64,000 nt of DNA from an uncultured delta proteobacterium (lineage in GTDB: Bacteria > Desulfobacterota > Desulfobacteria > Desulfobacterales > JAHEIW01): NCBI GenBank assembly GCA_963706575.1, contig CAVPNL010000015.1, positions 128,001 through 192,000 of the forward strand, given 5' to 3'. Below, in pieces: positions 8,764 to 34,703 of the stretch. The notes below the pieces were generated by a model. That model was not told where the DNA came from. It searched no databases and saw only the letters and a list, made by a program, of their open reading frames with translations. The translations under genes and the position numbers were made by a program. Position 1 is the stretch's first letter, and each line of letters begins with the position of its first letter.

Positions 8764-8964
8764 AGAAGCTATCTCAAAAATAGTAGATCACGTTCAAGGG
8801 CAAGGCGTCGATTCGGTTTTTAAGCGGAGCGTACAACGGAGTACGTGAGCATTATAAACCGAATTGATGAACTCCCTAATATTCATAAAAATAGAAGTGA
8901 AATCCCGCTTTCGCGGGGCAACGCAGCCATTGAGCGTGAGATGCTGTTTTTGTGATAGCTTCTA
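8764..8964 (-). mobile_element. Stop-codon-anchored palindromic (MITE-like) element, copy 1, with an internal insertion
   Basis: Terminal inverted repeats AGAAGCTATCTCAAAAATAG / CTGTTTTTGTGATAGCTTCT; core GCGGAGCGTAC..GTACGTGAGCA is shared with four other copies. Confidence 0.8.
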
Positions 8965-10164
8965 GTGACTCATGAGCGTCTTGCCCTTCTTCCCCAGGCC
9001 TTCTTTGTATCGCGTCGGTCTCAATGGATTGTCTTTAGGATCCATTGCGCCGGTCACCAGGTCACTGACCCATTTGCCCGCCTGGGGAGAGAGCATCACA
9101 CCGGCCCAGTAGCCGCAGTTGACATAAAAGCCGGGGACTTCGGGAACCTGGCCGATCAGCGGCTGGTCATCGGGCGTGTACATATAATATCCGGCCGAGG
9201 TGTCCATGTCGGGTTGCCTGACGGTCTTTTCAATTTCTTCGAAAAACGGCGTTAGACGCTTGACTTTGTCCAGGGTTAGGGCCGGAAACTCCCAGTCCGT
9301 CGGGACTCTCTCCGTCGGTTTACTGACCGGTTCATCCGCGTCCACCCAGCCGATAATCACACCGCCCGCTTCGGGGCGCCAGTAGCAATTGTTATTGACA
9401 TCAACTGTAAATGGCGCATCGGAAGGAATCGCCACCGAAGTTCTGACATAAACTTTTTGTCGGCGAACCGGCTCCAGCGGCAAATCCACTCCGGCCATTC
9501 GCCCGACCTCACCGGCAAACGGGCCGGCGGCATTTATCACGTTGCGGGTCTGCAGGATACCCCGATCGGTTTCCACGCCGCAGACCCCTTTTGCATCCGT
9601 TTGAATCCCGCTCGCCTTGGTGTTCAAAAAGAATCTGGCACTACTGCCTTTGGCAAATCCCTGGGTCGTTTCATGGCAGGACAGCCATCCATCCCGCTGC
9701 CGGAAAGTTGCGGCCAAAACCGAGGATGAGACAAACGGAAAGCGCTTGAGGATCTCTTCACCTTCTAAAAATTGTGAATCGGTAACCCCGAGGCTGTGTT
9801 GCTGGGTAATATTTTCTTTGAGATCATCCACGGTCTCCGGGTTATCGGTAAGAAAGAGATATCCCTGCTGCTTGATAGAAATGTTGTAGCCCGCTATCCC
9901 AATTACTTCGTCAAAATGCTCAAACATCTCGATGCTGGGTATGGCCAAAGACGCCATGGCCGGCTCCGTAAATTGCGCCCGAAAACATTCCGCTGAAGCA
10001 GGTGTGGTCAATGTTGACAGGCCATCCCGCATCTCGACTAAAACGACGTCCAATCCGGCCCTGGATAACCAGAAAGCCGTGGCCGTGCCCACAATGCCTC
10101 CGCCGATCACGACCGCATCGGTCTGGCCAAAATCGCTGTCAGTCGGTGTAAAAATCTTTCCCAT
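8962..10164 (-). CDS. FAD-dependent oxidoreductase (sarcosine oxidase beta / D-amino-acid oxidase family)
   Basis: VVIGGGIVG Rossmann motif, GYLFL, VINAAGPFA and YMYTPDDQPLIG motifs. Confidence 0.92.
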   Translation of the reverse strand: MGKIFTPTDSDFGQTDAVVIGGGIVGTATAFWLSRAGLDVVLVEMRDGLSTLTTPASAECFRAQFTEPAMASLAIPSIEMFEHFDEVIGIAGYNISIKQQGYLFLTDNPETVDDLKENITQQHSLGVTDSQFLEGEEILKRFPFVSSSVLAATFRQRDGWLSCHETTQGFAKGSSARFFLNTKASGIQTDAKGVCGVETDRGILQTRNVINAAGPFAGEVGRMAGVDLPLEPVRRQKVYVRTSVAIPSDAPFTVDVNNNCYWRPEAGGVIIGWVDADEPVSKPTERVPTDWEFPALTLDKVKRLTPFFEEIEKTVRQPDMDTSAGYYMYTPDDQPLIGQVPEVPGFYVNCGYWAGVMLSPQAGKWVSDLVTGAMDPKDNPLRPTRYKEGLGKKGKTLMSH

Positions 10165-10206
10165 TTCCGCAACCCTCCTTTTATTGAAAATGCCGAATCA
10201 ATAGCA

Positions 10207-10259
10207 TCTATAACTGCATATAATTGGTATGTCAATATGTTTTTCAGATGGTCTGACCA
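10207..10259 (-). promoter_or_regulatory. Sigma70 promoter with a FadR-type operator for the 10164-2746 operon
   Basis: Minus strand TTGACA (10235-10230)-17 nt-TATAGA (10212-10207); palindrome TGGTCTGACCA at 10249-10259 fits the FadR-subfamily TGGT-N3-ACCA box. Confidence 0.7.
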
Positions 10260-10567
10260 ATTTTTAGGTTTTTTTTAGATCGGCTTCTTTTCGATAAAAT
10301 CAAACAGTGAATCTAATTAATACTTTTAATAATTATTCAGGTAGGTTGTCGGATATTAAGAAAATTAGGCCAACTGTAAAGCATATGGAGATGCAAAGAC
10401 TGGTCAGCATGATGGGGGAAAACCAATTTTGGCGGTTTTAAAGGCTCGCCTATTGAGCTGGCTGGAAAACGAGTTGTGTAAAATCCGAGATGTGAAATAT
10501 TCCATTATGGACCGGACTCAGAGACTCGCAGTGAATCGAATCAGGTTGATCTCGTTGAAACAGCCCT

Positions 10568-11776
10568 TTACTGCTTCTTTTTTTTCCTGACTTTCATTGT
10601 TCGCTTCATCAGCCAGATCAACGGTTTGGTTAAAAAGCCCTCCATATCCTCCTGCACGTCATTGAGCAAATCCGGTATGGGAAGATGCTGGGGGCATTTT
10701 TCCAGACATTCTTCGCATTGCACACACATGGAAGCCAGTGATGGCTCGTCTGTAACAATTCCGCCGTTAAAAAAAACATACATTAATTTCGCTGCCTTAT
10801 CCTTGAAAGTATGCCTGGAATTGTAAAATTCAAAACAGCTTGGAATATTCACCCCTGCCGGGCAAGGCATGCAATACTGGCATCCAGTGCATCCGACCTT
10901 CATCACCCTTCTAAATTCAGCAGCCGCATCCTCGACCAATTTTATTTCTTTTTCAGAAAAAGAGTTTGGCAGGGCTTTTTCGGCCAGGGCCAGGTTTTCG
11001 TTTATGTGGTTATCGTTATTCATCCCCGATAGAACAACAGTGACCTCGGGATGATTCCAGATCCAGCCCAACGACCAACCGGCAGGCGTTTTCTTATGAT
11101 CGGCCTTTGCCCAGATATCTTTTACGGTTGATGGTGGGGTTTTGGCCAGATTCCCACCCCGCAATGGTTCCATGATGATCACCGCCATGTCTTTGGATGC
11201 CGCATATTGTAATCCGGCTGTCCCGGCCTGATTCTGGGTGTCCAGATAATTGTACTGAATCTGGCAAAACGTCCAGTCATAGTCATCCACGATGCCGTTA
11301 AATTCTTCCGCCAACCCGTGAAATGAAAACCCGGCATTGATGATCTTGCCCTTTTTCAACGCATCATCCAAAAACTCGATGACGCCGTTCCGCTTTGCCG
11401 TTTCCCAGAGTCCACCGCTCAGACCATGGATCAGATAATAATCGATGCGGTCGGTTTTCAGTTTTGACAGCTGCGCATCCAAAATATTGTCCATATCCTC
11501 TTTGGAATGGGTTCTCCAGTGGGGAAGCTTGGTGGCGATCTTTACCTTATCCCGACAATTATTTTCAGATAGGACTTTACCCAGAAACGGCTCGCTTTTA
11601 CCGTTATGATAGGGAACTGCCGTATCAAAATAATTTACGCCCCGATCCAACGCATAAATGATCTGCTTTTCGGCAAGTTTTTGATTAATGGATTGCATCC
11701 TCACCGGGAGCCGCATACATCCATATCCAAGTACGGATAGTTTATCCCCGTTTTTGGGCACTTCGCGATAAAGCAT
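10568..11776 (-). CDS. Aldo/keto reductase with C-terminal 4Fe-4S dicluster domain
   Basis: LSVLGYGCMRLP, GVNYFDTA, IATKLP, GFSFH, QIQYNYLD, IMEPLRGG, CTGCQYCMPCP and CVQCEECLEKCP motifs; ATG 11776 after AAGGAG. Confidence 0.93.
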   Translation of the reverse strand: MLYREVPKNGDKLSVLGYGCMRLPVRMQSINQKLAEKQIIYALDRGVNYFDTAVPYHNGKSEPFLGKVLSENNCRDKVKIATKLPHWRTHSKEDMDNILDAQLSKLKTDRIDYYLIHGLSGGLWETAKRNGVIEFLDDALKKGKIINAGFSFHGLAEEFNGIVDDYDWTFCQIQYNYLDTQNQAGTAGLQYAASKDMAVIIMEPLRGGNLAKTPPSTVKDIWAKADHKKTPAGWSLGWIWNHPEVTVVLSGMNNDNHINENLALAEKALPNSFSEKEIKLVEDAAAEFRRVMKVGCTGCQYCMPCPAGVNIPSCFEFYNSRHTFKDKAAKLMYVFFNGGIVTDEPSLASMCVQCEECLEKCPQHLPIPDLLNDVQEDMEGFLTKPLIWLMKRTMKVRKKKKQ

Positions 11777-11802
11777 CGTAATTCTCCTTTGCAATTTTAT
11801 GC

Positions 11803-12948
11803 CTAAATATCTCCGTCTATAACAGCAGTATTGATCACACCAATAGATAATTCCATCGGCTTTTCCCACCATCTTGCAGCGGGAATACTCACACCGTAAA
11901 CGGTGGTTTCACCCACAACAGGCGTTGCGATGTTGACATTTTTAAAATTCGCTGCGGCTGTTAACCGCACCATCGGTTCATACCAGGGATGCAGCGCAAG
12001 GTTAAACGTGGCCCAGTGAATCGGGTGCAAAACGTTTCCTTTTAGATCCAGGTGCGCCTGAACGGTTTGCTCGGGAAACATGTGCACCTTCGGCCACGAT
12101 TTGCCATACGCCCCGCATTCAACAAAGGTCATGTCGAATGGACCGTACCTGTAGCCGATCTGTTTAAAGCCTTCAAAGTAACCTGAATCTCCACTGAAAA
12201 ATAGTTTGTGCGATGGCGTTTTGATGACCCATGATGCCCACAGTGTTTTATTGCGGTCGGTGATACCGCGTCCCGAAAAATGCAGTGCCGGCGTTGCAGC
12301 TACCATCAAGTTTTGATCGAGCCGGTATTCTTGCCACCAGTCCAGCTCGACGATTTTATCCCGGGTTACCCCCCAGTCTATAAGCTGAGCACCGACCGCC
12401 AGCGGGACGATAAATTTATTTGACTTTTCAATTAACCGCTGCACGGAGAACTTATTGAGATGGTCGTAGTGATCGTGGGAAATAATGACAGCGTCTATTT
12501 TTGGAATCTGCCGGATGTCCAGAGGCACATCACCGTTAAAACGGGTCGGGCCAAATACGGATATGCGCTTTTCAAACACCGGGTCAATCAGAATTTTGTA
12601 CCCGTCAATATTGATCATTAGCGATGAATGACCCAGCCATGTGACGTTTAATTGATCGCTGCCCTGGTTGTTGAAGTGCGACAAATCCACCTGTTTGACC
12701 GGCAGCTCTGTGTCCGGTGTTCGATGATTTCTGGTGAAAAGAAAATCCCAGGTGGTCGAAACATAGTCTGTGAAGGACATATTCAGTGCATTTCCCATAT
12801 GGTTAAATTTTCCGTCTTTATATTGAGGCGAATCCTCTATTTTACCCGGCATGGAATAATCGGAACTACTCGCCACCGGGGTATCGGTGTTGATACACTG
12901 CAAAATGGCAATTCCTGTGATGATGCTAATGATAATTTTTAGTTTCAT
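11803..12948 (-). CDS. MBL-fold metallo-hydrolase (RomA / NAPE-PLD-like), exported
   Basis: TWLGHSS, ISHDHYDHL, HFSGRG, FSGDSGY, HMFPEQ and PIHWATF motifs; hydrophobic N-terminus. Confidence 0.92.
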   Translation of the reverse strand: MKLKIIISIITGIAILQCINTDTPVASSSDYSMPGKIEDSPQYKDGKFNHMGNALNMSFTDYVSTTWDFLFTRNHRTPDTELPVKQVDLSHFNNQGSDQLNVTWLGHSSLMINIDGYKILIDPVFEKRISVFGPTRFNGDVPLDIRQIPKIDAVIISHDHYDHLNKFSVQRLIEKSNKFIVPLAVGAQLIDWGVTRDKIVELDWWQEYRLDQNLMVAATPALHFSGRGITDRNKTLWASWVIKTPSHKLFFSGDSGYFEGFKQIGYRYGPFDMTFVECGAYGKSWPKVHMFPEQTVQAHLDLKGNVLHPIHWATFNLALHPWYEPMVRLTAAANFKNVNIATPVVGETTVYGVSIPAARWWEKPMELSIGVINTAVIDGDI

Positions 12949-12984
12949 GCGGTTTTAGATTTCCCATTTATTCAAAATTGTTAA

Positions 12985-13000
12985 ATGAACGATCATTTAT
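12985..13000. promoter_or_regulatory. Putative TetR operator upstream of the MBL gene
   Basis: ATGAACGATCATTTAT, an imperfect palindrome matching the site at 13599-13614. Confidence 0.65.
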
Positions 13001-13016
13001 AAATAAGGTAAATTTT

Positions 13017-13589
13017 TTATAACTTTATCGCATCCCAGGCTAACATGAATGCTGTTTCAATGTTTTCCGCGTTCAGTTCAAAATCCTGGCATAAACTTGG
13101 ATTGGCAAGAGCCGTTATGGGATAATACATGAAGGCCGTGAGAATATCAAAATTTACATTTTTAATGATCTTTTGTTCTATTCCTGTTTGCAGCACCTTG
13201 ATCAAGGGTTCATAATATTGTTCCACTTCTTGTCTATTCACTAAAGAACTGTAAGGCGAACTGGAAAATTGTTCGACAAATTTATAATATTCCAGGTTGT
13301 TAGAGATATATTCAAACATATTAAACCATACATTTCTGAATATATCCCTGATTGGCAGCTTGTCGTTAAAATCCTTAAGCAGGGCTTTGCTTAGATTCAG
13401 TTTTATTTCGATGTAGGTTGAAACTAAAAGGTCCTCTTTGTTTTTGTAATAAACATATATTGTGGCTGGAGATACACCGGCCTCCCTGGCAATTTTGGAC
13501 ACTGAACTGGAGGCGAATCCGGTTTCATTGACCAGCTTAACCGTGGCCTCAAATAGGGCTGCTTCTTTTGCATCATCCTTGGTTCTCAT
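13017..13589 (-). CDS. TetR/AcrR-family transcriptional regulator
   Basis: SVSKIAREAGVSPATIYVYYKNKEDL HTH; start MRTKDD at 13589. Confidence 0.95.
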   Translation of the reverse strand: MRTKDDAKEAALFEATVKLVNETGFASSSVSKIAREAGVSPATIYVYYKNKEDLLVSTYIEIKLNLSKALLKDFNDKLPIRDIFRNVWFNMFEYISNNLEYYKFVEQFSSSPYSSLVNRQEVEQYYEPLIKVLQTGIEQKIIKNVNFDILTAFMYYPITALANPSLCQDFELNAENIETAFMLAWDAIKL

Positions 13590-13595
13590 GGTTCT

Positions 13596-13624
13596 AAAAT
13601 AAACGATCATTCATTTATTGTCAA
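13596..13624 (-). promoter_or_regulatory. tetR promoter with overlapping operator
   Basis: TTGACA (13624-13619)-17 nt-TATTTT (13601-13596); palindrome ATAAACGATCATTCAT at 13599-13614. Confidence 0.65.
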
Positions 13625-13684
13625 GCAAATTCTCTTTTTTTGAATAATAATCCGTCTCATGTTCAGTAAATTTTTAAAAAAATT

Positions 13685-13721
13685 AAGCCCCAGATCTTTA
13701 CATAGATCAGGGGCTTTTTTT
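13685..13721. terminator. Intrinsic terminator-like hairpin downstream of ssb
   Basis: AAGCCCCAGATCT...AGATCAGGGGCTT flanked by A and T runs. Confidence 0.65.
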
Positions 13722-13802
13722 CAACCTATATAGTTTTATAATTCTGTATGTTACAATCTTTTCGGGCTATCCGAATCTTTACAAAACCTGCCGGGGTTCG
13801 CT

Positions 13803-14231
13803 TCAGAACGGAATATCATCATCCTCGGGAGCCTGCATGGGCGAACCGGGTCCCGCTCCGACGTCCGGGCCACTCGGTTTATAAGCGTCTCCGGAATCCC
13901 TCGATCCCAGCATGATCATCTGAGAGGCAACGATCTCGGTGGTATATCTTTTAACACCGTCCTTGTCTTCCCAGTCCCGGGTCTGTATTCGGCCCTCGAT
14001 GTAAATCTGCTTGCCTTTGGCAAGGTATTCGCCGCAGATTTCGCCCAATTTGCCGAAGGCGACAATCCGGTGCCATTCCGTGCGGGTTTCTTTTTCGCCC
14101 TCCTTGTTGGTCCATGTCTCCGAGGTGGCAATGCTGAAATTGGCAACCGCCAGGCCGCTAGGTGTGTATCGCACCTCCGGGTCCCGGCCTAAATTTCCGA
14201 TCAGAATGGCTTTATTCAAACCGTTGGCCAT
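13803..14231 (-). CDS. ssb: Single-stranded DNA-binding protein
   Basis: [42 protein letters not shown] and C-terminal DDDIPF. Confidence 0.98.
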
Positions 14232-14464
14232 TTTTTCCTCCCCCCTGTTGAAGTTAAAATGAATGATCTTTAGTACAAAAAAGGCAGTCCAATGTCAATC
14301 CAACCTTTTTAAAACCAAGGTGTTTTTTATCGCGAACGGAATATGGCCATTGGCAATATCTATTGCATGCCAGGGGCGAATGTGATTTTAATTCGAACCG
14401 GCACAACAATTTTGGGCGGTACCAAACCATATGAACGATCTAACCGCTGCCAGGCGAATAAATC

Positions 14465-15652
14465 ATGCCCATGACCTCTCCATTTTTCAAGCGCATCAAG
14501 CGCCATGTCATCGGCCGGGAACACACATTTTTTGCGGCAACGCCTCCCGGCTTTGAACCGCTTTGCCTCCAGGAGTTGTTGAATTTTCAGCCGGCTGTCG
14601 GCAATGCCCGGGTAACCCCCGGTGGTGTGGAATTTAAGGGGCGGCTCGATGACTGTTACCGTGCGAATTTAAATCTGCGCCTGCCCAACCGTATTTTAAT
14701 GCGCATCAGTGCATTCAAATCATCCAATTTCAGACAGCTTGAAAGAAAAGTGGGCGATACCCCCTGGGAACTGTTTCTGCACCCCGGGAGCCTTTTAAAG
14801 GTGCATGTGGCCACAAAGCATTGCCGATTGCATCATTCAGCCGCAATCTCAGAAAGATTTCAGAAAACCATCGACCGCCATCTTTCCGGACTTAATCCTG
14901 AAAAAAAGGACCCGGAGATCGCAAATGCGGAACAAAATATTTTCGTCCGCGGCAAGGATGATTGCTTCACCGTATCGATTGACAGCAGCGGCGAACTTCT
15001 TTACAAACGCGGACTGAAAAAACACACGGGCAAAGCACCGCTGCGAGAAACAATTGCGGCGGCTGCACTGCTGTTGGCAGGTTACGAGGGCAGTCAACCA
15101 CTGATTGATCCGATGTGCGGCGCCGGAACGTTTTCCCTGGAAGGCGCACTGATGGCCAAGCGCATTCCGGCGGGCTGGTTCCGCGATTTTGCGTTTGCGG
15201 GATGGCCCTCATATCTTGCGAAGCGATGGGACTATATCAGGCGTCAGGCCAAATCCGGCTTTGTGCAGCCCGAACAGCCAATGATCTTTGCTTCAGACAC
15301 GGATTCCGACGCCTGTCAAAAAATAGAGGATTGTGTTGAAGAATACAGCCTGTCCGATGCCGTCAGGGTATATCAAAAAGATTTTTTTGATCTAACTCCC
15401 CGGGAACTTACCGATCAGATGGGGGTCATTTGTATTAACCCGCCTTACGGCCGACGACTCGGCCAAAAGCATGATTCCCAAAAAATATTTTATGCCATTT
15501 GTGACAAACTCAAAAGTGATTACTGCGGATGGAAGCTGGTGCTAATTGCACCCAGCAGAAAACTGGCCGGCACGGTTCCTTTTGCGACAGAGGCTTATCC
15601 CATTGTGCACGGTGGATTGAAACTGACCTTGCTGGTTGGAAAAATCAATTGA
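14465..15652 (+). CDS. THUMP-domain SAM-dependent RNA methyltransferase (RlmL/YpsC-like)
   Basis: SIDSSGELLYKRG, APLRETIAAA, DPMCGAGT and NPPYG motifs. Confidence 0.92.
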   Translation: MPMTSPFFKRIKRHVIGREHTFFAATPPGFEPLCLQELLNFQPAVGNARVTPGGVEFKGRLDDCYRANLNLRLPNRILMRISAFKSSNFRQLERKVGDTPWELFLHPGSLLKVHVATKHCRLHHSAAISERFQKTIDRHLSGLNPEKKDPEIANAEQNIFVRGKDDCFTVSIDSSGELLYKRGLKKHTGKAPLRETIAAAALLLAGYEGSQPLIDPMCGAGTFSLEGALMAKRIPAGWFRDFAFAGWPSYLAKRWDYIRRQAKSGFVQPEQPMIFASDTDSDACQKIEDCVEEYSLSDAVRVYQKDFFDLTPRELTDQMGVICINPPYGRRLGQKHDSQKIFYAICDKLKSDYCGWKLVLIAPSRKLAGTVPFATEAYPIVHGGLKLTLLVGKIN

Positions 15653-15696
15653 AGTTTAATTAGATGGTTGTGTTTGACCAATTCACGCTTTTTTAT

Positions 15697-15782
15697 TCAC
15701 CACAAAGGCGCGAAGACCACAAAGAGTAATACAAAAATTTTTTACTTCTTAACTTTATGTCCTTCGTGATCTTCGTGGTTAA
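15697..15782. repeat. Inverted short-tandem-repeat element (CAC(A/G)AAG / CTTCGTG units)
   Basis: ACCACAAAGGCGCGAAGACCACAAAG ... CTTTATGTCCTTCGTGATCTTCGTGGT. Confidence 0.7.
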
Positions 15783-15783
15783 T

Positions 15784-15990
15784 TTATAGCGGTTCGGGAC
15801 CGCAAAGATTTTCAGCCTTGGCTGCCGCACGGCCGCAATTCTTACAGACGAATTGAGGGTTGCGCACATACTTTTTGTATTCTTCCAGATTGTTTTTCAC
15901 AAATCCGACATTTTCAGCCATGCACAAATGGGCCTCATGCCCCTCATGCGGCTCCGTCAGGTGTTGGGGAAGTGGAAACCACTCGGCCAT
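15784..15990 (-). CDS. Small His/Cys-rich hypothetical protein (possible metal binding)
   Basis: 68 aa; HEGHEAHLC ... FVCKNCGR ... NLCGP; RBS AAGGGGGTG. Confidence 0.75.
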   Translation of the reverse strand: MAEWFPLPQHLTEPHEGHEAHLCMAENVGFVKNNLEEYKKYVRNPQFVCKNCGRAAAKAENLCGPEPL

Positions 15991-16100
15991 AATCTCACCC
16001 CCTTAGTATTTTTCAGAATTTATTGAATCAACTGAAGATTCAAAACCTAATTTAAAAATAAGAACCAATATAGTGGTGTCAATTAGAGGCGATTTCATAT

Positions 16101-16129
16101 TTGACAGTCCGGCGCTTCTTATCTATTAT
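16101..16129 (+). promoter_or_regulatory. Sigma70 promoter for the M20 hydrolase / RAYT unit
   Basis: TTGACA-17 nt-TATTAT. Confidence 0.7.
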
Positions 16130-16149
16130 CACCACGAAACGACTAAAAA

Positions 16150-16256
16150 GCTGGCACAGAGGCCAGCCCTACACAAGACAAAAAATTGCATCTTGTGAAC
16201 AGTAGGGCGGCCCTCTGCGGCCGCCATTTCAAGCCCGCGCAGAAGCTCGGCCCTGC
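16150..16256. repeat. GTAG-type REP cluster (left)
   Basis: GCTGGCACAGAGGCCAGCCCTAC (16150-16172), GTAGGGCGGCCCTCTGCGGCCGCC (16202-16225) and a degenerate inverted partner. Confidence 0.85.
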
Positions 16257-16303
16257 ATGTAATTTAGCAAATCTGGTCGTAATGAATTTTATGGAGGTGA
16301 CCC

Positions 16304-17545: not shown

Positions 17546-17623
17546 GGCCGGTGCTTGCATCCCGACTTATGGGCGGGGCCTCCGTGCCGGCGAGGAAACG
17601 GCGGCCGCAGAGGGCCGCCCTAC
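17543..17623. repeat. REP cluster upstream of the RAYT gene
   Basis: GGCGGCCGCAGAGGGCCGCCCTAC at 17600-17623 is the exact reverse complement of 16202-16225; degenerate partners precede it. Confidence 0.85.
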
Positions 17624-17643
17624 TCCAAAATTAATCGCATATT

Positions 17644-18102
17644 ATGCCATTGAGACACAGAAAAAATGTCCGCCTTAAAAAAGAAATATACTCAAATCAA
17701 AATCAAATTTTTAGCATAACCATATGCACAAAAGATAGGCGACCTATTTTCGGAAAAGAACTTTGGGCAAAGACGATTATTGAGACCTTTCAGACAGAGC
17801 ATTTCCACAAAAACACAAAATCTTATGCATATTGCCTCATGCCGGACCATTTACACCTTCTGGTTTCACCCAAAAATGACAACTTAATTGGCTTTATAAG
17901 AAGATGGAAAAGCTACACCGCAAATCTTTTGAACAAATCCGGTTTGGATGGACCTTGCTGGCAAAGAGGTTTCTATGATCATGCCTTAAGAAGGGATGAA
18001 GATATTCGAACCACCACCGAGTATATTGTTCATAATCCGGTTCGCAAACATATTACACAGCATTGGAGAGAATACCCATATTCCTGGCACAAATGGATGT
18101 AA
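17644..18102 (+). mobile_element. rayT: REP-associated tyrosine transposase (RAYT, HUH/Y1 family)
   Basis: ITICT, YCLMPDHLH (HUH), WQRGFYDHALR, EYIVHNPVR and YPYSW motifs; AT-rich relative to neighbours; flanked on both sides by GTAG REPs. Confidence 0.93.
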
Positions 18103-18203
18103 GGCCGGGCCTCTGCGCCGGTCTAAAGAAGGCGGCCGCAGAGGGCCGCCCTACGTTTCGACAAAGACAATTTGCGGGATGTAGGGCTGGCATCCGTGCC
18201 AGC
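18099..18203. repeat. REP cluster (right)
   Basis: GTAAGGCCGGGCCTCTGCGCCGG (18099), GGCGGCCGCAGAGGGCCGCCCTAC (18131-18154), GTAGGGCTGGCATCCGTGCCAGC (18181-18203). Confidence 0.85.
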
Positions 18204-26758: not shown

Positions 26759-27076
26759 ATGGATGTCAAAGACTACTGTGAAACGATGAACAGCGAACTG
26801 GCCGCCTGGAAATCAAAGCTGAATGAAGTATCTAAAAAAACGGATGCTTTAAAGGGAGCGGACAGGGAAAACGCTGCGCCGATTGTAAAAGATCTGAAGG
26901 TCATAATGGGCGACATCGATGAGCGCATCGCAGTGCTGGCACGTGAATGTCCGTCTGAATGGAGCGATGATCAAAGCATTATCGATTCAAAAATATTCCT
27001 GGCAAAGGACAAATGGAAGGAAGTCTGGGGGGCACTGGGCGAGGATGATTCCGAATACGGCATCGGCGGCGCCTAA
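26759..27076 (+). CDS. Small helical hypothetical protein
   Basis: 105 aa, strong RBS AAGGAGA. Confidence 0.8.
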   Translation: MDVKDYCETMNSELAAWKSKLNEVSKKTDALKGADRENAAPIVKDLKVIMGDIDERIAVLARECPSEWSDDQSIIDSKIFLAKDKWKEVWGALGEDDSEYGIGGA

Positions 27077-27219
27077 AACTGATTTCAAAATCCCGTCTAA
27101 TGTCCGAATTCTGTGTTGAATGCCGCCTCAAAATACTCACATACTATTGTGTATGCTCCGTTATTGAGTATGCCTACGCATTGCCTTCGAATATAATCTG
27201 GGGCTTTGAAACCAGTTTT
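27074..27219 (+). mobile_element. Stop-codon-anchored palindromic element, copy 2
   Basis: TAAAACTGATTTCAAAATCC / GGGCTTTGAAACCAGTTTTA inverted repeat; core AAAATACTCACATAC..GTATGCTCCG. Confidence 0.8.
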
Positions 27220-27304
27220 ACAATACTAGAAAAATTGCTCATTTCCAAATAGGATTGCTTAAATCCGAACTTCGCTTTATCAATTTAATTCAGTCCGTAT
27301 TCAA

Positions 27305-28795
27305 CTATTTTGTTTTTTTCTTTTCTGCAGGCATAAGCAGGCAGAGCAGAATGCAGAAGCCGGCAGCCACTGTCACCGTCCAAAAAACACCGCCGACGCC
27401 TCCCATAACTGCGTCTTGAACCATATGGCGCAGCGCATCGGGCATTGTTGCCTGAGCCTCCGGGTGCAGCAGGCTCTCTACCTGGCCGGGTAAATGACGC
27501 ATCAGGTCGGAGTTGCGCACCGATTCAAACAGGTTGGAGAATCGGGCTGCAATAAAGCTGCCGCATATGCCCACCCCCACAGCTCCCCCCAGAGTTCTGG
27601 CGAACTGGTTCGAAGAGGTGGCCACCCCCAGGTCTTTTTCATCCAGACATGATTGGACCACCAGAAGCGTGGAAAGTGCCACCCATCCCATTCCGATGCC
27701 GATCACGAAAAAATTGAAAAAAACATAATAAGTTGAGGTCGCCGGTGTAAAGGTCAAGGTCACGGCGCACCCCGCCATAAGGCACAAAGCTCCCGCCACG
27801 GCGGTTCCTTTGCGCCCCACCCGGTCGATAAATTGTCCCAGGACCAGGGCACCCAGGGACCATCCCAGGCTAAGCGAGAGCATGCTAACGCCCACTACCA
27901 TAGGAGATCGGCCTTGAGCTCCCTGTATAAATAGGGGAGCAAAGGCAAACATGGAAAAAATGACAAAACTGCTGAGAAATACCGCGGCGTTAGCGGTGCT
28001 AAATCCGCGTATGCGAAAAAAAGCGATGGACAGGATCGGATCTTTTGCTCGATGTTCAATCGCAATAAATGCGATGATGCAGGCCAGCGAAAGGATCAGC
28101 AGGCCAATGATCAGCGAGGAACTCCAGGCATAATTCCTTCCTCCCAGCAAAAAGGCGAACAGTAAAGCCAGGACAGCAGTAGACAGGCTGGCTACGCCGG
28201 CGAAGTCCATGGAAACCTTATCTTTTTTGGCCCGCACATCCAGAAGATAAGCCCCGATGCCCCAGAAGGAAATCAAGCCCAGGGGAATGTTGATAAAAAA
28301 TATCCAGCGCCACGAAAAATAGGAAACGATAAACCCACCCAATGTGGGTCCAAGAACGCTGGCAATACCCCATACTGAGCTGGCAAACGAAAGGGTGCGT
28401 CCCCGGCTCTGGGGCGGCGATACGTCCGCCAGGACGACATAAACCAGCGCAAAAATCGCTCCGGCGCCGATACCCTGAAACGCACGGGCAATGATCAATG
28501 CGATCATGTTAAAAGCGAAACCGGCAGCCACAGAAGACAAGATAAATAATCCGATTGCTGCAAGGAAGAGGCTTCGGTTTTTGTATAGATCGGCCAGTTT
28601 GCCAAAAATAGGAAGAGACACGGCTCTGGCAAGAAAATAGGACGAATACACCCAGCTGTACAGGTGCAGCCCGCCCAGTTCAGCCACGACCGTGGGCATG
28701 GCCGCAGACACCACCAGGGCATCCATGGCACCCAGAAAAAGAGCCAAAAGTGCCGCAATAATAACGGCCCAGCGCTGCGTTGGAGAAATCGTCAA
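27305..28795 (-). CDS. MFS transporter, DHA2 (14 transmembrane) drug:H+ antiporter family
   Basis: MDALVVSAAMPT, PIFGKLADLY, ARAFQGIGAG, GPTLGGFI..SWRWIFFINIPLG motifs. Confidence 0.93.
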   Translation of the reverse strand: MTISPTQRWAVIIAALLALFLGAMDALVVSAAMPTVVAELGGLHLYSWVYSSYFLARAVSLPIFGKLADLYKNRSLFLAAIGLFILSSVAAGFAFNMIALIIARAFQGIGAGAIFALVYVVLADVSPPQSRGRTLSFASSVWGIASVLGPTLGGFIVSYFSWRWIFFINIPLGLISFWGIGAYLLDVRAKKDKVSMDFAGVASLSTAVLALLFAFLLGGRNYAWSSSLIIGLLILSLACIIAFIAIEHRAKDPILSIAFFRIRGFSTANAAVFLSSFVIFSMFAFAPLFIQGAQGRSPMVVGVSMLSLSLGWSLGALVLGQFIDRVGRKGTAVAGALCLMAGCAVTLTFTPATSTYYVFFNFFVIGIGMGWVALSTLLVVQSCLDEKDLGVATSSNQFARTLGGAVGVGICGSFIAARFSNLFESVRNSDLMRHLPGQVESLLHPEAQATMPDALRHMVQDAVMGGVGGVFWTVTVAAGFCILLCLLMPAEKKKTK

Positions 28796-29008
28796 AACCG
28801 GTTATCCTTACCACAAAAAATTGCTTATTTTCATAATGTTTCTCATTTAGCCGGCATCTTGCAAGGTCAGAGGCAATAATACAAGATACCCAACCGACCT
28901 TTAGGGCGTTAGATCATGTTCGAGGGCATTTTAAAAACTAAACTCGTTTCAAAACACTTAGGTTTTGGTTCAGGGCTCCCGCAAGGCGCAATAATAAATT
29001 GAAAACAT

Positions 29009-29156
29009 TAAACCGGCTTTTAAGGCCTTAGATTTTGTTCGAGGGTAAGGCGCGAGCCGATTCAAAAGCGGAGCGTACACGTGAGTACGTGAGCATTTTG
29101 AAGCGGCTTGCAACGCAGCCATTCGGGCAAAAGATGAGGCCTTAAAAGCCGGTTTA
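29009..29156 (-). mobile_element. Stop-codon-anchored palindromic element, copy 3
   Basis: Perfect 20 bp inverted repeat TAAACCGGCTTTTAAGGCCT / AGGCCTTAAAAGCCGGTTTA; core GCGGAGCGTACACGTGAGTACGTGAGCATTTT. Confidence 0.85.
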
Positions 29157-29639
29157 GGGGAGGGCCGTGCCCCAATCGTACCGCCGCTTAATATACTTAA
29201 GGATTAAGGATGTCTCGGTTCGAACGACGCCGTTTATTTTGTATATTTTATTAAAGATTACATCATTGAGCTCATCTAAAGACTTGGCCACAAACTCGGT
29301 GTAAATGTCCGAATCTCCCGTGGCATGAACGACAAACCAGATCGATTTGAGTTTCGACAATTCCTTTGTAACGCTCTCAATTTTGTTGATATCAACCTTA
29401 ATCCTGAGAATGCCGACAATCTTAAAACCCAGCTTTATCGGATTGCTGACCGCCACGATCTGAATGAATTCTTCTTCAATCAGGCGGTTTAACCGGCTGC
29501 GTACCGTCGCCTCCGACACCCCCAGCCTCTTGGCAATTTCGGTATTGGGTATGCGACCGTCCTTTTGCAACAGCTCGATCATCTGACAATCTATCTGATC
29601 CAGCATTTTCTTTTTATTGGATGAATTATTCCGCTTCAT
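29154..29639 (-). CDS. Lrp/AsnC-family transcriptional regulator
   Basis: LDQIDCQMIELLQKDGRIPNTEIAKRLGVSEATVRSRL; ATG 29639 after GGAGG; divergent from mmsA. Confidence 0.95.
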   Translation of the reverse strand: MKRNNSSNKKKMLDQIDCQMIELLQKDGRIPNTEIAKRLGVSEATVRSRLNRLIEEEFIQIVAVSNPIKLGFKIVGILRIKVDINKIESVTKELSKLKSIWFVVHATGDSDIYTEFVAKSLDELNDVIFNKIYKINGVVRTETSLILKYIKRRYDWGTALP

Positions 29640-29714
29640 GGTTCCTCCAATTATGGAATGACGAATAGCTAGTTTCCATCCGGTCCGCCACAAGCGGATT
29701 TCCGGGGAACTAAA

Positions 29715-29801
29715 GCATAGCGCATGGCGCATGGAACAAAGCAGCATAGCGTTTTGAATAAAACGATGCGATGTATTTTTTTTCGCTCTGCGCCCTGCGC
29801 T
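29715..29801. repeat. Inverted heptamer tandem-repeat element (GCAT(A/G)GC / GC(T/C)CTGC units)
   Basis: GCATAGCGCATGGCGCATGG...GCATAGCG ... CGCTCTGCGCCCTGCGC. Confidence 0.65.
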
Positions 29802-29966
29802 TACCCCTTTGCGATTAAGTATGTTTCGAGGGAGACTCTACCATTGCAAAATAAAAAAAACAACAATTATTTGTTTGATAACGTTATATGTGGAACACAA
29901 ATTGATTTAATTCGTTTTTTTTTAACATTTAATTTTTATTTTTCGCAGAAAGATAAAAATTAATTC

Positions 29967-29995
29967 TTGACAACAAAATAGGATTTGCCTAAAGT
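29967..29995 (+). promoter_or_regulatory. Putative sigma70 promoter of the mmsA operon
   Basis: TTGACA-17 nt-TAAAGT, preceded by an AT-rich tract. Confidence 0.55.
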
Positions 29996-30174
29996 TGCTT
30001 AAAATTGATATTGAATCAAAAACCGTTTACCCTTTCAGGGTTCAGGGTTAAGTTCGCAATCAAGATGACCCGGCTCGGCTGCCTTCGACATGAGCTCAGG
30101 CCGCAGGCTAAACGTTTAACTCTGAAAATATAAATGATCACTGAGTATAAGAAATCAGCAAAGGAGGATGCGAT

Positions 30175-31629
30175 ATGTCACTGCCATTAATGAAAAATTA
30201 CATCAACGGTGAATGGGTGGAATCCAACTCTAAAACGATGGGGGATGTATGGAACCCGGCCCAGGGAGAAAAAATCGCCCAGGTCGCCTACGGAACCAGC
30301 GAAGACGTTGATAAGGCCGTCAAAGCCGCCAAAGATGCTTACTGGGAATGGCGCACCACGCCGCCGCTGACGCGTGCCCGTTATTTGTTCAGGCTCAAAG
30401 ATGCCTTTGAGGAAAATTTCGAGGATATCGCCCGGGTTCTGACCACCGAGCAGGGTAAGTGCATCGACGAAGCGCGCGGCGAAGTCCGGCGCATGATCGA
30501 AAATGTTGAGCATGCCACCGGTGTCACCACACTGATGACCGGCTATACGCTGGAAGACATCGCCAAAGACATCGATTGCATGGGCCATCGCCAGCCGCTG
30601 GGCGTTTTCGCAGCCATTGTTCCGTATAACTTCCCGGGAATGGTGGCCTGGTGGTTTTTGCCATATGCCATTGTCTGCGGCAACACTTTTATTGTCAAGC
30701 CATCCGAACAGGTTCCCATGACCCAGACCAAAATCTTTGAGATCATCGATGAGGTCGGTTTCCCCGAAGGCGTTGTCAACATGGTCCACGGCTCCCGCGA
30801 CGTCGTCAATGGGTTGCTGGATCATCCGGACATTGAAGGCATCTCTTTTGTGGGATCCACACCCACGGCAAAATATATCTACCAGCGCTGCGGTGCAACC
30901 GGCAAACGGGTTCAGGCGCTGGGCGGAGCCAAAAACATCGTGGCGGTCATGCCGGATGCCGAACTGGAAGCGTCCATGCCCTCCATGATCACTTCGTTTT
31001 ACGGATGTACGGGGCAGCGCTGTCTGTCCGGATCGGTGCTGGTGCCGGTGGGAGACGTTGCCGACGAGCTGGTTGAAAAATTTACATCTGCGGCCAAGGT
31101 GATGAAAGTCGGCAGCGGCCTGGATGAACAGTCCGGTATGGGACCCCTGGCAACAGCAGCCCATAAAGAAAAAGTATTGGGCTACATCGAAAAAGGTATC
31201 GAAGAAGGCGCGGATCTGGTTATGGACGGGCGCGATTTTAAAGTCGCTGAATATCCGAACGGGTTTTTTGTTGGACCGACACTCTTTGACAATGTCAAAC
31301 CCGATATGACCATCGCCAAAGAAGAAATCTTCGGCCCGGTGGTCAGTGTAGTGCGCGCCAAAGATCTGGATGAGGTCATCAACCTGATCAACACGCGCGG
31401 TTTTGCCAACGCGGCCTGTATTTACACCAACGATGGAGCCACCGCCCGCGAATTCAAATACCGCGTCATACCGAGCATGGTGGGCATCAATATCGGTATC
31501 GCTGCTCCGATGAGCTTTTTCCCGTTTGGTGGTTCCGGAAATTCGATGTTTGGCGACACCAAAGCGCACGGACAGGAGATCTTTAACTTTTTTACGGATA
31601 CCAAAGTCGTCATACAACGCTGGTTCTAA
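30175..31629 (+). CDS. mmsA: CoA-acylating (methyl)malonate-semialdehyde dehydrogenase
   Basis: PYNFP, KPSE, ISFVGST, KRVQALGGAKN, GCTGQRCLS, EEIFGPV and GINIGIAAPMSFFPFGG motifs. Confidence 0.93.
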   Translation: MSLPLMKNYINGEWVESNSKTMGDVWNPAQGEKIAQVAYGTSEDVDKAVKAAKDAYWEWRTTPPLTRARYLFRLKDAFEENFEDIARVLTTEQGKCIDEARGEVRRMIENVEHATGVTTLMTGYTLEDIAKDIDCMGHRQPLGVFAAIVPYNFPGMVAWWFLPYAIVCGNTFIVKPSEQVPMTQTKIFEIIDEVGFPEGVVNMVHGSRDVVNGLLDHPDIEGISFVGSTPTAKYIYQRCGATGKRVQALGGAKNIVAVMPDAELEASMPSMITSFYGCTGQRCLSGSVLVPVGDVADELVEKFTSAAKVMKVGSGLDEQSGMGPLATAAHKEKVLGYIEKGIEEGADLVMDGRDFKVAEYPNGFFVGPTLFDNVKPDMTIAKEEIFGPVVSVVRAKDLDEVINLINTRGFANAACIYTNDGATAREFKYRVIPSMVGINIGIAAPMSFFPFGGSGNSMFGDTKAHGQEIFNFFTDTKVVIQRWF

Positions 31630-31771
31630 ATTGGTTTTAAAAACTCATCTAACGCCCGCTGGCCGCGTTGCGAACCGGTCCGAAATACTCACGTACTATC
31701 GTGTAGGCTCCGTTTCCGAACCGGTTCGCGCCTTACCATCGGACATGATTTAAGCTTTTAAAACCAATTTA
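31627..31771 (+). mobile_element. Stop-codon-anchored palindromic element, copy 4
   Basis: Perfect 16 bp inverted repeat TAAATTGGTTTTAAAA / TTTTAAAACCAATTTA; core AAATACTCACGTAC..GTAGGCTCCG. Confidence 0.85.
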
Positions 31772-31797
31772 ACTATTTTTTTTAAGGAGAGGAAATC

Positions 31798-32226
31798 ATG
31801 CCTCTGGAGAATTTTGGAAGTATACTCAATTTTGCGGAAGAGCTGGAGCTGCAGGATCTGGGGTTTTACAAAACCGTGGCGGAGAATCCGGCCTGCGCCG
31901 ATCATAAGCAACTGTTTAAAGAATTTGCAGCGGCCATCGACAAAAATGTCAAAACCGTGCAGCGAACCCGCCGCGAAAATGTGACCGAAATGATTCTGGA
32001 ACCGATCAAGGATTTCATTCGGGCGCCTTTTTGTGAAGAATGTGACGGCGCCGGCTCGATGAGCGCTGCCGAAGCAGTTGATGCGGCCCGCCGCCTGGAA
32101 GACCGCGCGGTTCGTTACTACACCGAAGCTGCAGTAAAAATCAAAGCCCAGCCTGAGGTGGCGCGCGCCTTGAAGACCGTCGGGAAAAAGCATATTGCCC
32201 ATCTCAATAAGCTCAAGGAAATGTAA
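31798..32226 (+). CDS. Ferritin-like / rubrerythrin-like four-helix protein
   Basis: ILNFAEELE..FY and AARRLEDRAVRYY helix-pair repeats; RBS AAGGAG. Confidence 0.7.
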   Translation: MPLENFGSILNFAEELELQDLGFYKTVAENPACADHKQLFKEFAAAIDKNVKTVQRTRRENVTEMILEPIKDFIRAPFCEECDGAGSMSAAEAVDAARRLEDRAVRYYTEAAVKIKAQPEVARALKTVGKKHIAHLNKLKEM

Positions 32227-32365
32227 GTAAAGCGGATGAACCATTCAGCCTGATTCGTAAAACCACCTGACAGGCTTTGCTAAAAGGGCGCTCAGGCAGA
32301 TTGAACCGCCTTTCTTTTGGGAGGCGATATACAGGCAAACCCATATCAAAAAAGGAGCAGGCAAA

Positions 32366-33745
32366 ATGAGTGAAGCGGTCGAAAAAATCAAAGCGTTGAC
32401 GGATCACACCTACGGCACCTGGAATCGCCAGTCGGGCTGGAAAACGCCCATGCTGGTTACCGATGCCGAAGGGATTTATTTTTACAACGCGGATGGAAAG
32501 CCGTTCATCGATTTTTCTTCACAATTGATGTGCTCGAACCTGGGGCACAAGAACAAGGCCATTATCGAGGCGATTGTCAAGCAGGCTGAAAAACTGCCCT
32601 ATGCCGCTCCGGGATTTGTCACCGAGGCTTCCATCGCCGCGGTGGAAGCGCTTAAAACGGTGGTGCCGGAGCCGATCAACCAGTTCTTTTTCTCAACCAG
32701 CGGGACAGAAGCCAACGACGGCGCCCTGATAATGACGCGTCAAAGCAAGGCACCGGCCTATAAAATCATATCCCGCTACCACTCCTACCACGGGGCCACC
32801 TCCGGCGGGCTGTCATTTACAGGCGACCCGCGCCGCTGGCCGGCCGAGCAGGCACGCTATACGGTGCAGGGCGTTCGGTTTGCACCGGATAATTATTGCT
32901 ATCGGTGCCCGTTCAAAATGGACTATCCGCAATGCGACATCCAGTGTGCCCGCTACCTGGATTATATGATCAAGGAAGAGGGCAATGTGGCCGCATTTAT
33001 TGTTGAGCCGGTTGTCGGAACTAACGGCCGCATCGTGCCGCCGCCGGAGTATTTTCCGATTGTTCGCCAGATATGCGATGAAAACGATGTGCTGCTGATT
33101 GCAGATGAAGTGATGTCCGGCTGGTTCCGGACCGGTACGGCTTTTGCCATGCAGAACTGGAAGGTTGCTCCAGACATCATGACAACCGCCAAAGGCGCCA
33201 GCAATGCATACACCCCGGTGGCGATCACCATGACCACCGAAAAAGTCAAAAGCCATTTCGAAGATGAGTTTTTCTGCCACGGCCACACCTATGCCTATCA
33301 CGCACTGGCAGCTTCGGCGATTCCCGCAGCCGTCGCAGAATATGACAAATTATTCAAATCCGGCTTGCCCCAGAAAACCGCACAGCATCTGCAGAAAAAG
33401 CTTTATGAAATGGGCGATAAGCACATCTGCGTCGGTGACGTCCGCGGTATCGGGCATTTCTGGGCGTTGGAAATCGTTAAAAACCGCGAAACCAAAGAGC
33501 CCTTTGACTACAAGGCCGACAAATTGAGCGGCAAAGCGCTGATGACCGGGCAGATTGCCGGAGATGCCATGAAACAGGGTTTGTATATGGCCCCCTGGTA
33601 TGACACCCTGGTGATTGCGCCGCCGCTGATCATCACCGAAGATCAGATCGATGAAGCTGTGGATATTCTCGATAAAGCGTTAAAAATCGGCGATGAACAG
33701 GCAGTTGAAACCGATGTGGCGGCTTCACATAGCTCTGCATATTAA
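32366..33745 (+). CDS. Class III aminotransferase (probable beta-alanine / omega-amino acid transaminase)
   Basis: IDFSSQLMCSNLGH, SGTEAND, SYHGAT, FIVEP, LIADEVMSGWFRTG, PDIMTTAKG and HGHTY motifs; in the mmsA operon. Confidence 0.92.
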   Translation: MSEAVEKIKALTDHTYGTWNRQSGWKTPMLVTDAEGIYFYNADGKPFIDFSSQLMCSNLGHKNKAIIEAIVKQAEKLPYAAPGFVTEASIAAVEALKTVVPEPINQFFFSTSGTEANDGALIMTRQSKAPAYKIISRYHSYHGATSGGLSFTGDPRRWPAEQARYTVQGVRFAPDNYCYRCPFKMDYPQCDIQCARYLDYMIKEEGNVAAFIVEPVVGTNGRIVPPPEYFPIVRQICDENDVLLIADEVMSGWFRTGTAFAMQNWKVAPDIMTTAKGASNAYTPVAITMTTEKVKSHFEDEFFCHGHTYAYHALAASAIPAAVAEYDKLFKSGLPQKTAQHLQKKLYEMGDKHICVGDVRGIGHFWALEIVKNRETKEPFDYKADKLSGKALMTGQIAGDAMKQGLYMAPWYDTLVIAPPLIITEDQIDEAVDILDKALKIGDEQAVETDVAASHSSAY

Positions 33746-33786
33746 TAATTGACTTTTTTAGCTGAATTTTCCTAAATATGATATAC

Positions 33787-33824
33787 AAAAATAAGCCGGA
33801 AGCTGGTTCCCGGCTTATTTTTTT
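33787..33824 (+). terminator. Intrinsic terminator
   Basis: AAAAATAAGCCGG...CCGGCTTATTTTTTT. Confidence 0.75.
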
Positions 33825-33910
33825 ATATTCAAGATTTGGGGCCAAAATGCCGATGATACAATGGGCACAATTTTCAATGAATTTGAGTATTTGTTAATAA
33901 TCCTTTCAAT

Positions 33911-33939
33911 TTGACACTTTATAGACAGCTTTTTATAAT
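33911..33939 (+). promoter_or_regulatory. Consensus sigma70 promoter of mglA
   Basis: Exact TTGACA-17 nt-TATAAT, ending 9 nt before ATG 33949. Confidence 0.8.
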
Positions 33940-33948
33940 TATTTGATA

Positions 33949-34557
33949 ATGGCTATTATTAATTTGAAAAAACGGGAGGTTGAGTGCAAGATCGTGTATT
34001 ACGGTCCGGGTAGGGGCGGTAAAACATCAAATTTGCAATATATTTTTCAAAAAAGCCGCAAATTAATGACCGATGAAATGGTTTCGATTAAAACCAAAGG
34101 GGACCTGACGCTCTTTTTTGATTTCGTGCCCATGGGTGTAGGAAAAATTAAGGGCTGCGATGTACGGATTCAGCTGTATACGGTGCCGGGCCAGGTAAAG
34201 TACAGCTCTACCCGCAAACTGGTCCTAAAAGGTGCCGACGGCCTGGTATTTGTTGCCGATTCCCTTGAAGTCCGCCATGAAAAAAACCTTCTTTCCCTAA
34301 AAGACCTCGCCTTAAATCTTAAGAGTTACGGCCTGAATATCATGGAAATACCGCTTGTGCTTCAGTACAATAAGCGCGACCTCGCCGCTGAAGGAGTACC
34401 GCTGATGCCGGTCGAAGCAATGGAAAAGGCCTATAATCACCAGCTTAAAGTACCATCCTTTGCCGCCAGCGCCATTACCGGGCAAAATGTGAATGCAACG
34501 TTGAAGGAGTGTCTGGTGCGGACGCTGCGGTCCCTAAAAAAAGAAGCTGGCTGGTAA
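33949..34557 (+). CDS. mglA: MglA-family small GTPase
   Basis: KIVYYGPGRGGKTSN, TLFFDF, QLYTVPGQV, VFVADS and QYNKRDL motifs. Confidence 0.92.
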   Translation: MAIINLKKREVECKIVYYGPGRGGKTSNLQYIFQKSRKLMTDEMVSIKTKGDLTLFFDFVPMGVGKIKGCDVRIQLYTVPGQVKYSSTRKLVLKGADGLVFVADSLEVRHEKNLLSLKDLALNLKSYGLNIMEIPLVLQYNKRDLAAEGVPLMPVEAMEKAYNHQLKVPSFAASAITGQNVNATLKECLVRTLRSLKKEAGW

Positions 34558-34703
34558 AACTTGACCCTAAATGCCCATCTTTCGCCCGATGGCGGTGTTC
34601 CGATCCACTTCAAAATACTCACGTACTCACGTGTACGCTCCGTTGTTTGAACCGAATCGCGCCTAACCATCGGACAAAATCTGGTCATTTATGATCAAGT
34701 TTA
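34555..34703 (+). mobile_element. Stop-codon-anchored palindromic element, copy 5
   Basis: AAACTTGACCCTAAATG / CATTTATGATCAAGTTT inverted repeat; core AAAATACTCACGTACTCACGTGTACGCTCCG. Confidence 0.8.

Follow-up and report, generated by a model that had tools for sequence, protein, structure and literature searches.

A mobile, TA-bounded hairpin repeat of Desulfobacterales with a one-strand fold and relatives among the ERIC, RPE-1 and probably RSA repeats

Why should a short non-coding repeat keep its base pairing while much of its sequence drifts? The question is posed by five repeats in a stretch of 64,000 nucleotides (hereafter the window; contig CAVPNL010000015.1, positions 128,001 to 192,000 of the forward strand, assembly GCA_963706575.1) from an uncultured delta proteobacterium of the Desulfobacterales lineage JAHEIW01, each of which begins on the stop codon of an upstream gene. 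The puzzle runs deeper than the window, for the folded core of the repeat is conserved across phyla and single copies that have stayed where they are keep their pairing in place.

The element is mobile, and it displays a TA duplication, a target bias and an orientation bias. In kind it is a known type, the ERIC/RSA/RPE-type hairpin miniature inverted-repeat transposable element (MITE); what is new is this large family, the structure of which is better defined than that of its named relatives. The explanation we favour, which we hold to be about an even bet, is that of a non-autonomous, non-coding, TA-bounded MITE of the ERIC/RSA/RPE type, likely moved in trans by a transposase of the IS630 family.

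Covariation and the folding strand

The presence of some 200 diverged copies in a single genome allows covariation to fix the structure of the element and to reveal the strand that folds. The covarying stems described in an initial annotation of the window were borne out: in a set of 24 diverse copies, comprising four from the window and 20 of the 21 fetched from the genome, and not corrected for relatedness, double changes were found at 39 of 51 pairs and 91.5% of cells were paired. None of 500 shuffles reached the observed level, and slid alignments paired 36-46%.

The two strands are not equivalent. In all 96 simple copies the better fold lies on the same strand, both as RNA and as DNA, the mean gap between strands being 15.7 kcal/mol for RNA and 6.9 for DNA. 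This stronger-folding strand is antisense to the gene whose stop codon holds the left end and hence lies outside the mRNA of that gene, the mRNA strand being the one that bears the A.C and pyrimidine mismatches. On the strong strand, G.T outnumbers A.C by 107 to 17 at modelled pairs, a count biased in favour of the model, and a structure-blind count gives 516 G.T against 298 A.C and 790 A.G against 103 C.T. An outer tandem G.A/A.G pair is present on this strand in 18 of the 24 copies, and a core G.A pair with a bulged G is invariant (24/24). The motifs previously listed as unpaired, such as CATCT and ATCT, are unpaired solely on the strand that the initial annotation had read; their complement forms the tandem G.A/A.G pairs of the other strand. 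It is likely, although this is our weakest inference, that the interior is a one-strand rod whose fixed bulges and G.A pairs are recognised by a protein. Such recognition would account for the persistence of pairing even among copies that have stayed in place.

The folded molecule might instead be an RNA made from the strong strand, serving either as a transposition intermediate that is reverse-transcribed by a host or intron enzyme or as a functional small RNA. G.U wobbles and tandem G.A pairs are typical of RNA, the gap between strands is larger when calculated for RNA, and the genome holds one reverse transcriptase. However, a scan of copies 2-5 found no sigma-70-like promoter reading into the strong strand in or beside them, and precise TA-to-TA ends without a truncation series better fit a DNA transposase. 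Nor was a known RNA family found: the Rfam search suggested for the window returned no match at the gathering threshold, and among 14 loci gave two sub-threshold hits only, V_AS5 on an ERIC copy and sX9. We therefore regard an RNA form as improbable. Sequencing runs searched for words of the element were represented by contigs only, with at most 31% of the words present, and carry no strand or expression information.

Ends, targets and orthologous sites

Profiles of the left and right arms, applied to the 5.67-Mb assembly, identified 166 paired elements and 78 lone ends (41 left, 37 right), and the reversed genome gave 0 hits. Redundant contig segments contribute two pairs to the 166, and one element appears twice in the count. 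Segments of 5-6 kb, 97-98% identical, indeed occur twice near contig ends (C13:1315-8036 versus C14, C16:1-5750 versus C17 and C5:1990-7230 versus C6; C, L and G numbers are our labels for contigs, loci and genomes), which is likely strain redundancy in the assembly. The modal length is about 146 bp and the copies are almost wholly intergenic. Two young subfamilies of about 30 copies each, both with near-fixed ends, dominate the genome, and the window copies are rare, diverged types within this family.

TA stands at both ends in 112 of the 166 copies and at each single end in 137. The flanks of the 112 TA-TA copies show a pyrimidine before the element in 88 and a purine after it in 87, and the third base is repeated in just 39, so that the target duplication is 2 bp (TA). 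A duplication of 3 bp was rejected for this family, the third base being mostly not repeated. Because a purine after TA yields TAA or TAG, stop codons fall naturally among the targets. Within the left end, the gapped skeleton TA.AA....T.T..AAA is kept, position by position, in 20-25 of 25 distinct end types. Thus, the proposal that the family conserves pairing and not sequence is right about pairing and overstated about sequence, given this skeleton and the near-fixed ends of the young subfamilies.

Forty of 166 left ends and 12 of 166 right ends lie exactly on a stop codon (p = 1.3e-4), counts that rest on a purpose-made gene caller (4870 genes) and are lower bounds. Measured against non-coding Y-TA-R sites, left ends are enriched 7-fold and right ends 2-fold at stops (43 and 12 with one-base tolerance), and left ends are enriched 3.5-fold in the next 15 bases past the stop. 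The stop would persist without the element at 26 of 32 stop-abutting left sites. An exact start on the stop codon, which the initial annotation had made a defining trait, is thus true of all five window copies but is not a general rule; the window happens to over-represent a bias that is nonetheless real. Orientation of the element tracks gene bias and not GC skew, and there is no replication-strand bias.

Host-selected, cis-acting RNA structures of the 3' untranslated region, acting for example in mRNA decay or termination as reported for Yersinia ERIC, would account for the 7-fold enrichment of left ends at stops. They would also suit the greater share of rare types at stops (23/63, versus 20/103 of the young types; p = 0.018) and the orientation-dependent effect of ERIC on the stability of upstream mRNA (PMC2229807). 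Nevertheless, some 70% of copies lie away from stops and 31 of 166 sit between divergent genes, the mRNA strand carries the A.C and pyrimidine mismatches, and the copy at a given stop is missing or replaced in close relatives. A better fold on the strand opposite to the abutted gene, seen in every simple copy, likewise argues against this explanation. The 3' untranslated region structure offered in the initial annotation is consequently very unlikely to be what the family is, and would be at most a secondary use of some copies. Under the favoured explanation of a MITE moved in trans, the orientation and stop biases would arise from target choice combined with better survival of that orientation, a survival bias being suggested because rarer copies sit at stops more often. 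The stop-abutting orientation keeps the strongly folding strand out of the mRNA of that gene.

In the window, the five repeats lie where they had been placed and each starts with the TAA or TAG of the upstream open reading frame, in an orientation relative to that frame that is identical in all five. The copies and their surroundings are as follows, with scores referring to the covariance model of the family.

8763..8964 (-): copy 1, starting at the TAG that stops the oxidoreductase gene, with a nested insert inside; model 70.5 bits
8866..8918 (-): nested insert of copy 1, about 53 bp, boundaries approximate; a CCCGC-loop-GCGGG hairpin that adjoins the CAA bulge of the left arm
8962..10164 (-): host gene upstream of copy 1, FAD-dependent oxidoreductase, all profile matches below curated cut-offs
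26759..27076 (+): host gene upstream of copy 2, 105 aa, no NCBIfam match
27074..27220 (+): copy 2, begins on a TAA stop; model 122 bits on the - strand
28901..28989 (-): immediately following copy 3, two remnants of right arms from other family members, read from the sequence, one of them profile-scored
29009..29156 (-): copy 3, with a TAA stop at its start and a terminal stem of 20 bp that pairs perfectly; model 159 bits on the + strand
29154..29747 (-): host gene upstream of copy 3, Lrp/AsnC-type regulator
30175..31629 (+): host gene upstream of copy 4, methylmalonate-semialdehyde dehydrogenase (MMSDH), TIGR01722 above cut-off
31627..31771 (+): copy 4, begins on a TAA stop
33943..34557 (+): host gene upstream of copy 5, small GTP-binding-like protein, weak TIGR00231
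34555..34703 (+): copy 5, begins on a TAA stop; model 140 bits on the - strand

Four of these copies measure 145-149 bp, and copy 1 reaches about 202 bp because of the nested insert of about 53 bp. The four copies without an insert form rods on either strand (RNA z -4.4 to -13.3), the stronger fold always falling on the strand opposite to the upstream gene. The five upstream genes are unrelated host genes.

The gene of copy 1 occurs in 14 of 21 other genomes of the genus, with the flank visible in 13. These 13 sites comprise three full elements, two clear and two doubtful remnants and six without trace, intergenic sites in the genus being too diverged for a base-exact empty site. Two of the orthologous full copies differ by five compensated and five G.T changes, and none of their pairs is broken; in other pairings 2-7 pairs are broken, partly through imprecise removal of the insert. 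In assemblies that are 79-87% complete, each arm variant at this site is single in its genome, which makes it likely that the changes occurred in place. Of five relatives compared at the stop of copy 4, one carries a collapsed palindrome of 26 bp and the other four carry another member of the family, followed in three cases by fragments of an older member. None of the three relatives that bear the genes of copies 2 and 3 holds that copy on the stop. Behind the 105-aa gene, where the window holds copy 2, loci L138-L140 carry a different rod hairpin with a variant core. The look for empty sites in relatives that the initial annotation had advised has therefore yielded copies present or absent at orthologous positions. 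Moreover, a young-subfamily copy lies between two TA within a broken IS630-family transposase gene (L272:232-381, genome G008), and this insertion, together with a relative at hemE in Escherichia coli described below, provides filled/empty evidence for the target-site duplication.

Palindromes of 26 bp in which the left end is fused to the right end occur at C1:406183-406208, at C3:137752-137777 and behind the MMSDH gene in locus L029; they are likely scars of internal deletion. Such collapse is what hairpin-driven deletion is expected to leave, and it fits a further explanation in which the arms correct each other by template switching at replication and covariation is the by-product, the fold having no function. 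Arms that co-vary in single, stationary copies point the same way. Template switching is, however, blind to strand, and so leaves unexplained the excess of G.T over A.C, the conserved G.A loops of one strand and the core kept across phyla. We think it rather unlikely as the whole explanation, and it may account for part of the arm covariation alongside the favoured MITE.

Named relatives and the wider family

A covariance model of the family was built and searched against related genomes; it hits all 18 searched in the genus, 7 of 12 from elsewhere in the order and 23 of 121 across the phylum, and near-identical copies sit in Desulfobacterales records. BLAST with copy 3 retrieved a 150-bp repeat of enterobacteria, which the model matches end to end (62.5 and 60.6 bits, full-length, on the E. 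coli and Klebsiella repeat). This repeat is present in 5426 of 5426 E. coli genomes, at a median of five places per genome. The stop of hemE is filled by it in 309 of the 5426, in the same orientation as in the window (L035:301-450, hemE-nfi). The single aligned empty record is 147 bp shorter, and in the filled record the stop triplet stands on both sides of the insert. The repeat is probably RSA (150/151 bp, six copies; PMC5172473 table), a name assigned by size and copy number and not by sequence. It shares with our family a near-identical core, the rod fold and the polymorphic, same-orientation insertion at a stop, but has its own end sequences and outer stems, about five copies as against about 200, and a small strand preference in the one copy tested (DNA -45.5 versus -44.9 kcal/mol).

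A copy from Rickettsia gave a full-length model match of 77.4 bits and is identified as RPE1 by TIGR01045 (56.7 bits, cut-off 30), a profile with 0 hits in the Desulfobacterales genome studied here. RPE-1 is 105-146 bp long (PMC2229807, PMC10969869). The copy has 146 bp between its TA ends, the same core and the better fold on the same strand. Unlike our family, which has stop triplets at both ends and is almost wholly intergenic, RPE-1 is often read in frame inside genes.

ERIC is more distant. It has TA at both ends and shares the core hairpin and side motifs, as judged by eye against the consensus in PMC2759123 Table 1a and from aligned ERIC-type copies. In contrast, ERIC (also IRU, RU-1 or MITEEc1, with its relative MITEPlu5) is 127 bp long with TATACCC-type ends, as opposed to 146 bp and TAGAA/TAAAA ends here. 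The model scores ERIC-type loci weakly, at 24-32 bits, and misses the canonical copy L205. Relatives of ERIC in Photorhabdus are of high copy number with proven indels (PMC2759123, PMC6267812), and ERIC-type insertion into stop codons occurs occasionally (PMC6267812 supplement). Our family displays the features given for hairpin MITEs in PMC2229807 Table 1, namely a length of 100-200 bp, no encoded transposase, multiple copies and TA-ended inverted repeats. The element is not an orphan, for it matches described relatives: RPE-1, probably RSA and, further off, ERIC. One core thus ties together three named repeats. A search of the open-access literature showed no description of this family and no union of these repeats, the primary ERIC, RSA and RPE papers lying outside that coverage.

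The core extends well beyond these names, its pattern matching about 45,000 stored stretches in GTDB. Among 128 matches examined, 92 form symmetric rods, compared with 22 of 384 flank-shuffled controls, and two side motifs that were not part of the search are in place in 39 of the 92 rods, where 1.2 would be expected; model scores at these loci are inflated by their selection on the core. By record title, the matches fall in Pseudomonadota, Bacteroidota, Bacillota, Nitrospirota, Planctomycetota, Acidobacteriota, Myxococcota, Campylobacterota and Deferribacterota. One of these loci is the RPE1 copy described above, and several are of ERIC type. The core stays the same from phylum to phylum; the ends do not. 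Among 54 core loci with long flanks, 33 have a reading frame that terminates at the weak-strand arm and nine have one that terminates at the opposite arm, a comparison made with no null. Genome G102 carries tandem composite repeats of 355-390 bp with one family core each (L037:3685-4543 and 12672-13885, L038, L039), and further copies beside rRNA operons (L041-L043). An integron attC cassette array was considered and rejected, since copies are dispersed beside housekeeping genes and the G102 arrays have no cassette genes.

Candidate enzymes

How might such an element be moved? In the favoured explanation, an IS630-family transposase would read the gapped end skeleton TA.AA....T.T..AAA and tolerate other bases at the remaining positions, a tolerance that would let the arms drift. 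TA duplication is the signature of IS630/Tc1 (PMC6267812 supplement), and comparable links have been drawn between MITEPlu5 and CCC-type IS630 ends, by end similarity (PMC6267812), and between RUP and IS630-Spn1 (PMC2229807). One candidate is an IS630 subgroup, designated L424 (NF033545), found in 39 of 401 genomes of the order. Its ends score up to 8.9 on a matrix of the element ends, a matrix on which the background, TA 18-mers from the same loci, stays below 6.9 in 99.9% of cases, and they are in register with our subfamily B over positions 5-17. Like the element, the subgroup is TA-bounded, and its left and right ends also vary at positions 7-9; unlike it, the subgroup is autonomous and about 1.1 kb long, and the model has no hit inside or beside its loci. 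Because the element duplicates TA and its conserved end skeleton resembles that of an IS630 subgroup, the contrast drawn in the initial annotation with MITEs of the DDE type is weaker than claimed.

In genome G017 (L267:1252-2430), an intact IS630-family element has its right end and transposase stop sharing a TA with a member of our family. This insertion sequence is unrelated to the L424 subgroup (29% over 94 aa), and one element end in G507 resembles its end, a single case judged by eye. An enterobacterial IS630 left end (L300 and 18 other IMG/VR matches) has 13 bases in common with the right end of copy 1 at a near-equal distance from TA; this match rests on one subfamily and is weak, and it is possibly due to chance.

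Several observations weigh against the IS630 explanation. The end match of the L424 subgroup was spotted after the fact, scores far under real element ends (median 17.2), differs at positions 3-4 and has flanks that are not clearly Y-TA-R. Although young subfamilies are present here, the subgroup was not found in this genome or in any of 12 other genomes of the family, and its end pattern was found in 0 of 22 genus genomes, incomplete assemblies in each case. Three of the seven subgroup carriers searched with the model gave no hit (G253, G410, G025) and four have the element. Genome G271 has several identical copies of the insertion sequence alongside 37 element hits, yet its element ends do not follow the ends of the insertion sequence. 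IS630 as a whole does not co-occur with the element, being found in 4 of 23 positive and 25 of 98 negative genomes. Furthermore, double-stranded DDE transposition alone leaves the strand-specific interior unexplained.

The strand-specific interior is what would be expected if the element moved as a folded single DNA strand, by way of an enzyme for single-stranded DNA (HUH/RAYT-like, integron-integrase-like or GIY-YIG Ssn-like) that reads the bulges and G.A pairs, much as integron integrases read the bottom strand of attC. The fold on one strand in 96 of 96 copies, the invariant bulged G and G.A pair, and a core that is constant while ends differ across phyla, with side motifs in 39 of 92 rods, all speak for it. 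Set against these are the TA duplication, typical of IS630/Tc1 (PMC6267812 supplement), the tracking of gene bias and not GC skew by element orientation, and the want of a suitable gene. No flanked or recurring partner gene was found in this genome, in 61 viral loci (prophage structural genes only) or in 139 loci of other genomes. As for an autonomous form, two pairs of lone left and lone right ends lying kilobases apart (6.7 and 11.7 kb) enclose unrelated host-sized genes, and a third pair is a 60-bp collapsed copy. This genome has eight GIY-YIG hits, one IS110 hit and one reverse transcriptase hit, none bracketed by elements. A lone right end lies about 200 bp from one small GIY-YIG gene. 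We consider movement as a single strand unlikely.

RAYT was rejected as the partner, RAYT-like genes being found in 15 of 23 genomes with the element and in 58 of 98 without it, and the RAYT gene of the window lying 9 kb off with its own repeats. The earlier idea of a mobile element with a one-strand fold and no identified partner protein is upheld; its link to REPIN and RAYT is not. REPIN/RAYT and NTS/SsnA (PMC11893778) are likewise dispersed, strand-asymmetric hairpins, with a partner enzyme that acts on single-stranded DNA. They are, however, hairpins of 20-50 nt that flank the enzyme gene, as opposed to a 146-nt rod with a TA duplication that flanks no gene. The accessible portion of the Bertels and Rainey preprint holds nothing on ERIC. 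A PD-(D/E)XK_2/Rpn enzyme (PF12784) was discarded as a partner, with 0 of 121 genomes positive.

It is tempting to go further and to view ERIC, RSA, RPE-1 and the unnamed 120-150-nt repeats of at least eight phyla as one superfamily with an active single-strand core. Here, the hairpin would be extruded, with its paired arms serving as the transposon end and its bulged core bound by a host or IS630-type protein, and the same recognition would keep stationary copies paired and steer insertion to gene ends. We put this forward tentatively, as a proposal that may well prove wrong. If true, it would provide a mechanism for the ERIC repeats, known for 35 years, and establish a hybrid between DDE and single-strand transposition; the movement of ERIC, RSA and RPE has been proposed and not shown (PMC2229807), and PMC6267812 offers end similarity alone, as far as the accessible sections of both go. 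Two concrete handles are at hand, the candidate IS630 subgroup and the hemE site of E. coli, filled in some strains and empty in most.

Two minor features of the window remain. A REP-associated tyrosine transposase is encoded at 17644-18102 (+) (NF047646, 115.5 bits, cut-off 80); it is unrelated to the element and is bracketed by its own short GC-rich inverted repeats at about 17575-17625 and 18100-18200. The module of about 53 bp nested in copy 1 has 66 profile hits in the genome, 38 of them inside paired elements and 18 near lone ends. It enters the element at two mirror positions in opposite orientations (24 versus 14 inside paired copies). Closer in appearance to the REPIN/NTS class than the 146-nt element is, this module is a possible parasite of the element, loosely resembling NTS/SRM repeats.

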